Positions 18,543 through 36,441 of a stretch of 64,000 nucleotides of DNA are shown here, piece after piece (position 1 is the stretch's first letter; each line of letters starts with the position of its first letter). The stretch is taken from the IMG/VR virus record IMGVR_UViG_3300030060_002428; one strand, written 5' to 3'. Source of the stretch: an uncultured virus (IMG/VR IMGVR_UViG_3300030060_002428). Lineage: Duplodnaviria; Heunggongvirae; Uroviricota; Caudoviricetes; Crassvirales. The notes under the pieces are model-generated. The model ran no database searches. It worked only from the letters and a program-made list of their open reading frames with translations, and was not told the origin of the DNA. A program made the position numbers and the translations under genes.

Positions 18543-18584
18543 AAAAAAAGACCGGTAGGGGGCCAATTCCCCCTACTAGTCTTT
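18543..18584 (-). terminator. Rho-independent terminator after the capsid-accessory genes
   Basis: Minus strand GAAAGACTAGTAGGGGG-AATTGG-CCCCCTACCGGTCTTTTTTT. Confidence 0.8.
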
Positions 18585-33510: not shown

Positions 33511-33703
33511 CTTCTACTAAAACTTCTATTATGTATTCGTGATCCCCTATGAAAACTTTGACATCCCATGTCGCTGTTATATTTTTCTCTGACCATATCA
33601 TTAGCTTCTTTTTAAAATCTGTTGTTAACTCAAACAATTCGTCTAGATCATATGTCACAAACCTAGTCTTGATCATCTGTGAATTGTATTCTTGCTCGTC
33701 CAT
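33467..33703 (-). CDS. Hypothetical protein
   Basis: Part of an overlapping gene chain; true start uncertain. Confidence 0.45.
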   Translation of the reverse strand: MDEQEYNSQMIKTRFVTYDLDELFELTTDFKKKLMIWSEKNITATWDVKVFIGDHEYIIEVLVEDDTDKKENKAEDND

Positions 33704-33914
33704 CTTCTAGTATAATCTTAGCAGATTTAGACTGCTTATTAAACTCAGATACATGTGGCTCTATATCAGCACGAGTAGACAGGAAGCTTAAGAACACAGC
33801 CATCTCTTTGCCAGCACGCTTTGTACTAGCACTCAGAGATTCTGTTTTTTCTTGAGCATCTAGAAGATCATGATAATCATCTAGCGATATAGTCACTGTG
33901 CCTGCAGGTCTCAC
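33663..33914 (-). CDS. Hypothetical protein
   Basis: GTGA overlap with groES; GTVTISLDDY motif. Confidence 0.55.
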   Translation of the reverse strand: MRPAGTVTISLDDYHDLLDAQEKTESLSASTKRAGKEMAVFLSFLSTRADIEPHVSEFNKQSKSAKIILEDGRARIQFTDDQD

Positions 33915-34195
33915 TTCTTAATCTTTCCGAGTATTTGAAACTCGTTTACAAACAAATGAGGAACCTCATCAATATGTATAAGCATAGCTTCAGAAGTAGG
34001 ATCAACCATAACGGTATCCCCTGTCTTTGTATGCCTACAGTCTGGACCTACGGCCAGAACCTCCAAGATATTAGTTTGTAATTGTTTTGCTGTCTCGTCA
34101 TCTAAGTAAATGCCAGACTTTGTCTTCTTTGTAGAAGGTTGAGGTAATACTACCCACCCTCCAAAGGGTGTAAAATTTAATTTGCTCTTAGCCAT
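33911..34195 (-). CDS. groES: Co-chaperonin GroES-like protein
   Basis: FTPFGGWVVL, KTKSGIYL mobile loop, EVLAVGP, GDTVMV, EFQILG. Confidence 0.85.
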   Translation of the reverse strand: MAKSKLNFTPFGGWVVLPQPSTKKTKSGIYLDDETAKQLQTNILEVLAVGPDCRHTKTGDTVMVDPTSEAMLIHIDEVPHLFVNEFQILGKIKK

Positions 34196-34264
34196 TATCT
34201 AAAAATTAGTTTTAGGCTAAGTTATAAATAAATTATTTACAGTTCCAAAAAAAATTTAAAATTT

Positions 34265-34538
34265 GTTCCCGATTGGACACAGTTACCCCCTTGGGGTTTC
34301 CTATTTCGATTGGAACTTTACTGTCAGCAGTGCTTCTCTATTAAGAGACCAAGGGACACTAAAACTAGTGTTAATTCACCGCACCTACCTGTGTGCAATG
34401 TGTCCCAACTGACGGCTATATCCGCTCTTTCTGAGGCTATCGGAGAAAACTCTAGGTTCTATTTGAACCCTACAATCCAACGTCTGACCCTATACTGCCC
34501 GTTTGGTCCTCTAGGGTGATACACTTTCGTGTGCCTCG
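34265..34538 (-). ncRNA. Putative highly structured ~270-nt non-coding RNA (or structured leader)
   Basis: GC-richer non-coding island with at least 8 nested stems, including ACAC-GAAA-GTGT and a long-range TTGGGACACA/TGTGTCCAA pairing; begins just after a consensus promoter. Confidence 0.55.
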
Positions 34539-34541
34539 ATG

Positions 34542-34573
34542 CAAAGATAGAAAAAAATCTTTAACTACCGCAA
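34542..34573 (-). promoter_or_regulatory. Bacteroidota sigma-A promoter driving the structured RNA/late operon
   Basis: Minus strand TTG-N21-TATCTTTG. Confidence 0.7.
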
Positions 34574-34746
34574 TTCAAACATTCTTCTGGGTTATCAGTG
34601 TTGCAAGAGATCTCACCAGACTCAATCTTGGCTTCTTGTTCTTGCAATCTTGTCTGATCTAGAAAGTTTACATTTGTGAATTCTTGGTCCCCTGCACTCT
34701 CAGTGTTTTGGTACCTTTCTTTGTAGTAATTTTTTGGCTGCGACAT
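34561..34746 (-). CDS. 61-aa peptide ending in an RNR-alpha-like redox tail
   Basis: Ends ...GEISCNTDNPEECLNCGS*. Confidence 0.6.
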   Translation of the reverse strand: MSQPKNYYKERYQNTESAGDQEFTNVNFLDQTRLQEQEAKIESGEISCNTDNPEECLNCGS

Positions 34747-34891
34747 GAGCCTGTAAATGTATTAAAAAATTTCTGGGGAAAAAATTTTTTGTGTGGAGTT
34801 TTTTTGAGCGCGTAGACCAACACAAACACAGACCCCCACTACTTCTCGAGCTTGGGAGTACCCCGAGCCATAATCTATAAATCATTCACAG

Positions 34892-35095
34892 ATGTACAAA
34901 GTACAGCAAAATGCGGAGGGCAAGCTTCGCTTAGTAGAAGAAGATGGTGCAACGACGCCATTACTTGCAACGTTAGACCAGCTACAGTCAGACACAGAGT
35001 GGCGTAGTCGTATAGAGTTTAGACCTTCTGAGTTTAAGGAAGGTGCACAATATGCGATACTAATGCCTTCTGCATATGTAGACATAGAGGTCTAA
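34892..35095 (+). CDS. First early hypothetical protein
   Basis: ATG after an A-rich leader; first plus-strand ORF of the early block. Confidence 0.55.
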   Translation: MYKVQQNAEGKLRLVEEDGATTPLLATLDQLQSDTEWRSRIEFRPSEFKEGAQYAILMPSAYVDIEV

Positions 35096-35200
35096 CAACC
35101 TATTATCTGGTAGCTAATGCCTATTCCAGACTTTGTGATTAAAGCAAAGAGGCATAGTACATAGGGACGCGAACATTAATCCTGACGGGATAGTTCCTAT

Positions 35201-35383
35201 GTGCTATTATTTTTTATGCACAAACAAAGACACTACGTTATGTTTAAAGCACTAACAAAGAAACTTAAAGCACGAACAAAGAACCTCACTAAACGTCAGC
35301 GTCAGTTCTTTACTTTGTGGGACTTACTACTATTGGTAAGCTTGTTCTTAATACTTGTTGCAGTTATTGAAGCAGCTAAGTAA
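35201..35383 (+). CDS. Small basic membrane protein
   Basis: Lys/Arg-rich N-terminus and C-terminal TM helix; true start may be ATG at 35216 or 35240. Confidence 0.45.
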   Translation: MLLFFMHKQRHYVMFKALTKKLKARTKNLTKRQRQFFTLWDLLLLVSLFLILVAVIEAAK

Positions 35384-35536
35384 GTGAGTGTGGCAACTAA
35401 GTCACATTCACCCAATTTCTACCTCTTTTTACATTTGTATTTTTCTAATTAATTATATTATATATCACAATGGACGATTATTCAACTAATCTATACTATG
35501 AGTTAATCATTTCAAACATTCAAAACATTTATCAAG

Positions 35537-35749
35537 ATGAGTATTCTTAAATCTAAACCATCTAACAGAACTAAAACTCCAATTGACCACGATATGGAGG
35601 ACATTCAAAGACGAACTGATAAAGCTATGGAAAGCATATCTAATCGTCTGACTGAAATCAAAAAGTCTTTAATCAGTTTATCTAATGAGCAAGATAGACT
35701 TGAGAATTATTTAGAAAAGCTCAGAGAATCTAAAACTTCTATCAAATGA
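35537..35749 (+). CDS. Small coiled-coil protein
   Basis: Heptad pattern; ATGA overlap with the next gene. Confidence 0.55.
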   Translation: MSILKSKPSNRTKTPIDHDMEDIQRRTDKAMESISNRLTEIKKSLISLSNEQDRLENYLEKLRESKTSIK

Positions 35750-35958
35750 AAAAGTTTAATTTAGTAGCAATCTGCGGCATTGCTATGATGCTAATGGCAT
35801 CTTGTTCTACATCTCGTGCAACTTATGGTAATCAATACCAAGACCACGGTTGGGGAACTAAGAGCAAATGTGGCAAGAAAAAGCCAGGCAAATGGCAAAG
35901 AACATCAAGCAACAATACTAATCGTGATGGCAGTACAAACTGCTCAGCTTGGTGGTAA
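35746..35958 (+). CDS. Small lipoprotein
   Basis: MKKFNLVAICGIAMMLMAS-C lipobox. Confidence 0.65.
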   Translation: MKKFNLVAICGIAMMLMASCSTSRATYGNQYQDHGWGTKSKCGKKKPGKWQRTSSNNTNRDGSTNCSAWW

Positions 35959-36234
35959 ATCGTATTTAATGGCAATAAAGCCTTTAATCAGCAAGTGCAA
36001 AACTGAAAGCTAGTAGTCTATGACCGGCATCAGACGAAGACCCAAGGAGACACCTCTGCTGTAATCATTGAGTAATGTGTTAGAAATATTCTTATTTACA
36101 TCTAAACAGGTAACTAGAGAAATACTCTAGCTAACACATTACTCTTCATTTTAACAAGACAAGCACACAGACAATTTAGTCATTATTATTAACCTTTTCG
36201 TTTTACAACGTGTGCTTGTCTTTAACTATTTTAT

Positions 36235-36390
36235 ATGATGAAGTTATATGAACTCAATACTAAACTGCTTAAATCTCAACAAAAACGGATAGACCAACTT
36301 GAGAGAGATAACGCATTTTGGCGTGACTTATGTAAAAAACTATCACTACCTATAAAACCTAAGAAAGCAAAGAGCAAAGAGCCTAAGTAA
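36235..36390 (+). CDS. Small hypothetical protein (51 aa)
   Basis: My translation: MMKLYELNTKLLKSQQKRIDQLERDNAFWRDLCKKLSLPIKPKKAKSKEPK. Confidence 0.45.
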   Translation: MMKLYELNTKLLKSQQKRIDQLERDNAFWRDLCKKLSLPIKPKKAKSKEPK

Positions 36391-36441
36391 AGGACTTGCT
36401 GTTTGTTTTTGCATTTATTTATTATTTAATTTTTATTTATT

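Follow-up and report, generated by a model that had tools for sequence, protein, structure and literature searches.

What lies in the gene-poor interval ahead of groES in an uncultured crAss-like phage, and if it is an RNA, what might that RNA do? We addressed this question in a 64,000-nucleotide (nt) stretch of viral DNA (IMG/VR record IMGVR_UViG_3300030060_002428), here called the window, which is part of a crAss-like phage genome. A first-pass annotation, made from the letters of the window, had singled out positions 34265-34573 as a promoter-driven, densely structured non-coding RNA read from the minus strand. We found that the minus strand carries a conserved structured RNA of ~265 nt at 34272..34542 (family profile match 34539-34273, E 5e-78), and we hold the existence of this RNA family to be practically certain. 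The case for the RNA is built on conservation and covariation, not on folding energy. With regard to its role, our preferred reading, which we hold at about even confidence, is that the RNA is a discrete functional molecule with a predicted activity of its own.

Conservation and distribution of the RNA

The family profile finds a single copy of the RNA in the window. Its start near 34538 was placed from the promoter, and its 3' end near 34275 from the limit of conservation. We gathered relatives through GroES (18 loci) and through the large terminase, TerL (the best 80 of 287 relatives). An nhmmer search with 34230-34600 of the minus strand recovered the RNA block in 46 distinct sequences; every locus with a complete 8-kb flank upstream of TerL (16 of 16) had the block, at TerL identities down to 73%. 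Each of five near-complete relatives (5/5) carried one copy, scoring 108-119 bits. A fixed 19-base pattern from domain 2, the most conserved part of the molecule, matched at least 120 IMG/VR loci, and the profile confirmed all 120 of those listed. The family is therefore present in at least 120 IMG/VR contigs, which belong to one marine crAss-like phage clade, and it occurs once per genome.

The full-length copies collected numbered 161, with 109 distinct and 88 mutually less than 96% identical. Seventy columns are invariant in the alignment of these 88 sequences. The adjoining GroES drops to 45% amino acid identity over the same loci, indicating that the RNA is under the stronger sequence constraint.

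Searches beyond the clade were negative. A looser gapped pattern was run against bacterial and archaeal genomes, and none of the 120 matches examined, among at least 120 loci listed, was confirmed by the profile; all were chance matches. The region 34200-34600 matched nothing by blastn among 50,697 phage records. A covariance model of domain 2 only (R1) found no copy in five Bacteroidota genomes, nor in a sample of 151 genomes of one Flavobacteriaceae-centred family at E up to 0.01, and in a sample of five distant Crassvirales (FpV4, phi14:2, cr50_1, Kehishuvirus and Carjivirus communis) its best scores were 14-17 bits with poor alignments.

Secondary structure and covariation

We derived a structure model starting from RNAalifold on 39 sequences, which gave 53 pairs, 21 of them with two-sided changes, and refined it by hand and with covariation scans. 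RNA position 1 corresponds to 34542 of the window, and all of the elements below are on the minus strand. The fold comprises two multi-helix domains (P1-P4a and P5-P11), a 3' hairpin and a possible 4-bp pseudoknot; it is counted as 16 helices since P5, P7 and P11 are each interrupted.

Domain 1 (34433..34537) is a four-way junction whose principal helices all change on both sides in an alignment of 32 sequences. These are P1 (34537-33/34437-33, RNA 6-10/106-110; 97.9% paired), P2 (34532-29/34524-21, RNA 11-14/19-22; 92.0%), P3 (34517-12/34492-87, RNA 26-31/51-56; 99.5%) and P4 (34481-76/34444-39, RNA 62-67/99-104; 100%). P3 encloses P3a (34507-05/34500-498, RNA 36-38/43-45), and P4 encloses P4a (34470-65/34459-54, RNA 73-78/84-89).

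Domain 2 (34308..34427) is closed by P5 (34427-21/34314-08, RNA 116-122/229-235) and contains P7 (34416-09/34327-20, RNA 127-134/216-223), P8 (34406-00/34359-53, RNA 137-143/184-190; 99.8% paired in 88 sequences), P9 (34396-93/34384-81, RNA 147-150/159-162), P10 (34380-77/34370-67, RNA 163-166/173-176; 100% paired in 88 sequences) and P11 (34350-44/34337-29, RNA 193-199/206-214). The 3' tail (34275..34307) consists of the P12 hairpin (34296-94/34289-87, RNA 247-249/254-256), which is 90.6% paired with one-sided changes only, and the 3' strand of P6. The latter is the possible 4-bp pseudoknot, formed between UAUA at 34420-17 and 34281-78 (RNA 123-126/262-265). Each P6 position is paired in 83-88 of the 88 sequences and the changes are one-sided (U-A to U-G), so that the pseudoknot is consistent with the data but unproven.

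The helices are strongly supported by the alignments. Across 32 sequences the 68 model pairs were 93.7% paired, compared to 38-46% when the 3' partners were slid along the sequence and 83.3% after shuffling. Changes on both sides were seen in 33 of the 68 pairs, giving 245 two-sided cells against 77 +/- 9 in the shuffles, and none of 500 shuffles reached 245. For domain 2 in 88 sequences, pairing was 91.0% versus 35-49% with slid partners, and two-sided cells numbered 376 versus 115 +/- 15 after shuffling. Shuffle controls inflate significance for related sequences, which counts against taking these last figures at face value; the slid controls are the fairer comparison and are also clear. A separate mutual-information ranking placed nearly all of its top canonical pairs within the modelled helices, and the scan for additional tertiary pairs found none beyond them.

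The pairings drawn by the first-pass annotation could be compared with this model. Seven of its eleven match helices kept by covariation: the hairpins at 34521-34532, 34455-69, 34381-96, 34335-48 and 34287-96 correspond to P2, P4a, P9, the distal part of P11 and P12, the pairing 34487-92/34512-17 is P3, and the pairing of CTGA with TCAG was retained as P7, an ordinary nested helix and not the pseudoknot that had been envisaged. The other four (34411-14/34481-84, the long-range 34273-81/34399-408, and hairpins 34356-71 and 34320-31) found no support. They clash with P8, P10, P11 and P7, and jointly they were 63.9% paired in the 88 sequences versus 63.8% in shuffles, 208 of 500 of which reached the observed value.

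Applied to the window sequence, the model has an energy of -65.8 kcal/mol, with canonical bases at 65 of its 66 nested pairs. For the minus strand the minimum free energy of -82.2 kcal/mol corresponds to z = -2.05; the plus strand gives z = -2.51. The expectation that the region would fold better than shuffled controls was borne out in part: only 4 of 200 shuffles were as good on the minus strand, but a z of this size makes the folding energy by itself only modestly unusual and weak evidence.

The alignment further separates into two types. Forty-five of the 88 sequences, including the window, are type A and possess P2; the other 43 (type B) lack P2 and open with P1, which reads GCAAC/GUUGC and follows the -7 box of the promoter by a few bases. 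We considered the upstream hairpin of type B (AGAGUU.../AACUCU) as an alternative to P7 and rejected it, as P7 covaries (CUCUAG/CUAGAG to CUUUAG/CUAAAG). Some lineages add ~80 nt to P4a or extend P11. The junctions and loops of the core do not change (UAUCA, AGAC, UUUUCUCC, UAUA, the P9 and P10 loops, and AGCACUG); peripheral helices are gained and lost around this fixed core.

Genomic setting and strand of the folded molecule

Below 31.5 kb the minus strand encodes the large terminase (PHROG 6681, E 1e-131), the portal and the major head protein, and beyond 37.6 kb the plus strand encodes a DNA polymerase of family A and a helicase. Open reading frames (ORFs) of 1480 and 1335 amino acids occupy 55.5-63.9 kb. 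By tblastn, the window terminase matched 159 of the 50,697 phage records, all below 60% identity (best 41%); these are Crassvirales of Bacteroides, Flavobacterium and Cellulophaga. The RNA locus falls within the ORF-poor 34196-36441, which separates the two divergent gene blocks, and the RNA stands at the head of the minus-strand virion-gene block in an orientation that is constant across relatives. It coincides with the GC-richer island reported by the first-pass annotation (GC 0.44-0.45 at 34300-34599 versus 0.325-0.35 at 34100-34399). Between the divergent blocks, 34900-36440 is weakly conserved, holds short ORFs only and is matched by just two near-identical loci. Further down the minus-strand block, a gap between two virion genes contains a strong intrinsic-terminator-like hairpin at 18555-18576 (-), with 8 pairs (6 G-C) and a T run; the plus strand has a matching hairpin.

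Such a position invites the proposal that the conserved block acts as DNA (a replication origin, a packaging site or a protein-binding array) or is a small protein-coding gene, and not an RNA. It lies near the switch of the divergent blocks, where the cumulative GC skew turns (~36.2-36.4 kb), and mechanical plus-strand ORFs of 49 and 69 amino acids overlap it, as either version would have it. Against this, the pairing is strand-specific. Of the modelled pairs, 93.7% are canonical when read on the minus strand and 83.9% when read on the plus strand, and 240 of the 2127 pair cells are G-U, which the other strand would read as A-C. This bias indicates that the folded molecule is a minus-strand RNA, neither DNA nor a plus-strand transcript. 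The RNA is also non-coding, because the alignments contain 1- and 2-nt insertions and deletions and the substitutions, including the two-sided ones, preserve pairs rather than codons; the impression of the first-pass annotation that no credible ORF is present was correct, the overlapping mechanical ORFs being just 31-69 amino acids long. Its further suggestion of a replication or packaging element near the genome end did not hold, as the G-U pairs are strand-specific and, in a relative that has direct terminal repeats, ~15 kb separate the RNA from the end. The skew turn itself is ~1.8 kb distant from the RNA. We consider a DNA element or a coding gene highly improbable.

Promoter, traces of transcription and upstream neighbours

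The promoter proposed for the minus strand, TTG-N21-TATCTTTG, is present as described. TATCTTTG at 34542..34549 (-) is a -7 box of the Bacteroidota type (TAnnTTTG), and the candidate -33 TTG at 34571..34573 (-) is 21 nt upstream, where it overlaps the last codons of a small upstream ORF. The Bacteroidota sigma-A promoter has the consensus TTG ... TAnnTTTG. We found an exact TAnnTTTG directly upstream of the RNA, before P1, in 97 of 108 distinct contexts and TAnnTTTA in 6 more; in the 5 contexts (5/108) without the box, the stop codon of the small ORF abuts the RNA. The -7 box counts as evidence because its position is conserved and not because of the motif alone.

Two studies with RNA-seq libraries provided contigs that overlap the RNA in part. 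X1 contributed a 366-nt contig of depth 17 over 34345-34608, and X2 two 151-nt records, 34223-34373 and 34425-34575. As RNA-seq libraries can contain DNA, this cover is a weak hint of transcription; uncovered stretches of 33600-35400, and RNA-labelled runs with ~0.05 of the sampled words, were uninformative.

The small upstream ORF (34561..34746, minus strand) encodes a Cys-rich product of 61 amino acids that ends in ...CNTDNPEECLNCGS, and it is the upstream neighbour in part of the family. ORFs ending in ..C..C.. within 90 nt of the RNA were found in 20 of 78 distinct contexts, all of type A (another example is L296:3188-3367 (-)), and their C-terminal pattern is ...QPxAC.I.NP.CENCGS. The ORF had no PHROG, Pfam or PDB match. 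Its C-terminal Cys motif may resemble the tails of ribonucleotide reductases.

Farther upstream is a second conserved non-coding block, Element 2 (34775..34870, minus strand), with the core TAGTGGGGGTC...GGTC.AC.CGCTCA followed by A6T6. In 76 of 76 locus hits it precedes the first promoter of the RNA unit. Its distance from the RNA is mostly 0-480 nt, the exceptions being 830 and 1935 nt. No consensus fold was obtained for Element 2 with RNAalifold on either strand, and it may be a protein-binding or insulating DNA site.

Downstream genes and the possibility of a late-transcript leader

The gene that follows the RNA in the window is groES, encoding the Cpn10 co-chaperonin (33911..34195, minus strand; PHROG 3188, E 2.9e-11; Pfam Cpn10, E 2.5e-6), which starts 76 nt after the RNA. 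In 54 of 62 contexts a groES gene follows the RNA on the same strand, its product showing 45-91% amino acid identity. The spacer between the RNA and groES contains a second TTG...TAnnTTTG promoter in nearly all relatives, ~25-30 nt after the RNA. The corresponding site in the window, TTG-N21-TAACTTAG at 34217..34248 (-), is one base off TAnnTTTG; the groES -7 box of the close relative L006 is TAACTTTG, and TAACTTAG may represent a weakened groES promoter or a mere variant.

The neighbourhood between the RNA and groES varies. About 12 of the 54 contexts have other genes between the RNA and the groES promoter, for instance L007:2605-2958 (+), L266:3127-3270 (+) and L296:2430-2894 (+). The inserted genes include SET-domain and DUF5522 genes and small Cys-containing ORFs, with a convergent membrane-protein gene in L296 and probably in L236. 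In L296 this convergent gene encodes 154 amino acids and ends ~10-17 nt from the 3' end of the RNA, and the tail of the RNA forms a terminator-like hairpin followed by a U run; the spacer of L236 resembles that of L296, making a convergent gene there probable. The interval between the RNA and groES appears to be a hot spot for gene insertion. Across the varying flanks, two features alone stay constant, namely the RNA and its location at the start of the virion block. The idea that the RNA is a groES riboswitch or 5' leader was rejected, given the separate groES promoter, the intervening genes in ~12 of 54 contexts and the convergent gene of L296.

The main rival to a discrete molecule is that the RNA is a cis-acting leader of late (virion-gene) transcripts, which might act in processive antitermination of the put or EAR type, or in stabilising or processing a long mRNA. 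A late-operon leader was among the suggestions of the first-pass annotation, and it fared unevenly. The RNA always heads the minus-strand virion-gene block in the same orientation and in one copy per genome, no consistent terminator follows it, and at least one strong intrinsic terminator (18576-18555, minus strand) lies within the block for an antiterminator to act upon. Some relatives have a SET-domain gene (Pfam E 3e-10) or a DUF5522 gene (E 1.6e-15) close behind the RNA, at distances of 11 and 7 nt, respectively; genes that begin so near to the RNA (7-12 nt) leave no room for a promoter and must be co-transcribed with it. The RNA is located inside an operon, right after the small ORF, in 5 relatives. 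A polymerase-directed mechanism would, in addition, tolerate varied downstream genes.

Set against this, groES has a promoter of its own ~25-30 nt after the RNA in nearly all relatives, and the window has further TAnnTTTG sites in downstream intergenic gaps, so the virion block does not depend on one promoter. The position expected of a put- or EAR-type element, within the unit and upstream of the terminator at 18576-18555, is occupied in most contexts; L296 is an exception and L236 probably another. In both lineages the gene after the RNA is convergent (in L236 by the look of the spacer). The RNA of L296 ends, in addition, in the terminator-like hairpin and so cannot feed the groES block, yet it is kept. 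The RNA, with its 16 helices, is also far larger and more intricate than put or EAR, and it matched no Rfam family. We consider a cis-acting leader possible but rather doubtful.

Predicted role of the RNA

We favor a function that resides in the folded RNA itself because the RNA is kept in every flanking context, including that of L296, where it cannot feed groES. In the mechanism that we propose, late transcription would open with host RNA polymerase, guided by sigma-A, initiating ~4-6 nt downstream of the -7 box. Once folded, the RNA would function as a discrete molecule, for instance a scaffold that binds proteins, a decoy or an RNA with some other self-contained activity. It would neither regulate the adjoining groES nor serve as a DNA site. 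Transcription would often continue into downstream sequence, such that the RNA might form the 5' part of longer transcripts and might be cut out of them.

Several observations weigh against a discrete molecule, in addition to the inflated shuffle statistics mentioned above. There was no consistent intrinsic terminator after the RNA in the window or in the spacers of relatives, and in the phages with SET-domain or DUF5522 genes close behind it, the RNA is the 5' part of an mRNA, which suits a cis-acting leader equally well. The promoter evidence is uneven, since the -33 TTG (17-23 nt upstream) was present in only 45 of 108 contexts (the window has it, with a 21-nt spacer) and TAnnTTTG itself is frequent, occurring 73 times in the window. 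The contigs from RNA libraries cross both predicted ends, to 34608 upstream and 34223 downstream, and could be DNA carry-over or longer read-through transcripts. Finally, exact complements of the conserved loops were sought within the window and yielded no convincing antisense target.

A more ambitious form of the discrete-molecule reading, which we put forward tentatively, is that the RNA is a new large functional RNA class of marine crAss-like phages: a ribozyme, the RNA at the core of a ribonucleoprotein of phage and host, or an aptamer made in high copy that would capture a host factor or signalling molecule in late infection. An activity residing in the fold is suggested by the size of the RNA, by its 70 invariant positions, which are concentrated in junctions and loops, and by its retention in every gene context.

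We weighed catalysis separately. The RNA might be a ribozyme that excises itself to set the 5' end of the downstream mRNA, or it might catalyze another reaction. The many invariant unpaired nucleotides among the 70 invariant columns, the multi-helix junctions with a possible pseudoknot, and the variable peripheral helices around a fixed core amount to a complexity that is typical of ribozymes, and in some relatives ORFs start 7-12 nt after the 3' boundary. The RNA matched no Rfam 15 ribozyme at E up to 10, however, whether the search covered the window or the loci of 20 relatives, and these features would fit protein or ligand binding as well as catalysis. A ribozyme therefore appears unlikely.

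Few large and intricate RNA classes are known, and earlier ones led to new ribozymes, riboswitches and RNA-guided enzymes. Few phages of Bacteroidota are as abundant as the crAss-like ones, yet the control of their late gene expression is, to our knowledge, poorly understood. The presence of the RNA in every examined genome of one marine clade offers a handle on what these phages do as virion production begins. With the alignment and covariance model the family can be catalogued and further members sought, and both define constructs for probing, cleavage assays, pull-down and cryo-electron microscopy.

Comparison with known RNA families and systems

We compared the RNA with Rfam 15, whose 4227 models include RNase P, group I and II introns, transfer-messenger RNA (tmRNA), 6S, riboswitches, GOLLD, ROOL and ARRPOF. 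The whole window, searched as the first-pass annotation had advised, had no match at the gathering score; at E up to 10, just two unrelated plus-strand matches appeared beside the RNA. The loci of 20 relatives gave 4 unrelated matches at E up to 10, and none recurred; the kinds seen overall were small nucleolar RNA, microRNA and small RNA. ARAGORN reported neither tRNA nor tmRNA genes in the window, in line with the first-pass view that the region resembles neither. The RNA is conserved, its helices covary, its pairing is strand-specific and Rfam 15 has no match for it, all of which support the earlier proposal of a new phage non-coding RNA.

A literature search found no description of a non-coding RNA at this position in crAss-like phages. 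PMC10690425 lists 10,006 unnamed candidate structured RNAs (csRNAs) from IMG/VR, the same data source and the same kind of object as ours, and supplement file 5 of that study includes seven csRNAs with a Cpn10/GroES gene within 25 bp downstream (DNAVirus_286, 287, 4323, 4369, 5914, 6015 and 7983). The gene is 76 nt away in the window, against 25 bp or less for those seven, and in this comparison, made by description, none was linked to our RNA; the RNA may already be unnamed among the 10,006 candidates of PMC10690425. As far as tested, it constitutes a previously uncatalogued RNA family, its novelty being at the family level.

Could the RNA instead be a highly diverged member of a known family, such as RNase P RNA, the remnant of a group I intron, tmRNA or a riboswitch of the cobalamin type, too distant for the Rfam models to detect? 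By eye, GAUAUAG resembles the group I 'S' element, GGUGAA..A with GCACUG the cobalamin core, and CAGGUA.GGUG RNase P; these word likenesses are all that speaks for a known family, and no tool bore them out. The absence of Rfam 15 matches at the gathering score, the unrelated and non-recurring weak matches across 20 relatives and the negative ARAGORN result all point away from it. The group I core runs P3-[P4-P6]-P7-P3'-P8-P7'. The order in our RNA, P5-P6-[P7-P11]-P5'-P12-P6' (A-B-[domain]-A'-hairpin-B'), differs from this topology, there is no match to RF00028, and no split ORF or interrupted host gene flanks the RNA as a group I intron would require. We regard a diverged known family as very unlikely.

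The packaging RNA (pRNA) of phi29 (~170 nt, with a three-way junction) is likewise a phage-encoded structured RNA found beside packaging and head genes. Our RNA differs from it in having no Rfam match and in belonging to crAss-like phages, which carry a standard large terminase and portal. The late leader of lambda ('6S'), transcribed from PR', is also a promoter-driven non-coding stretch of a few hundred nucleotides ahead of the late genes, but it is not known to form a conserved multi-helix fold, whereas the crAss-like phage RNA has 16 covarying helices and 70 invariant positions.

The put RNA of HK022 and the EAR element of Bacillus are cis-acting RNAs of processive antitermination. Like them, the crAss-like phage RNA is a structured RNA that occurs early in a long transcription unit, after the promoter, and tolerates differing downstream genes. 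It is much larger and more complex and has no sequence or structure match to either, a second promoter, that of groES, comes right after it, and it is kept before a convergent gene and a terminator-like hairpin.

GOLLD and ROOL are large phage-associated structured RNAs of unknown function, roughly 600-800 nt in length and found next to tRNA genes. The RNA shares with them its large, intricate and strongly conserved fold, its phage origin, the lack of a known partner and its discovery by comparative analysis. It differs in its length of ~265 nt, the absence of an Rfam match, its occurrence in crAss-like phages that infect Bacteroidota, and its fixed place upstream of groES in a window without tRNA genes. 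The crAss-like phage RNA is thus closest in kind to GOLLD and ROOL, and closest in position to the leaders of late operons.

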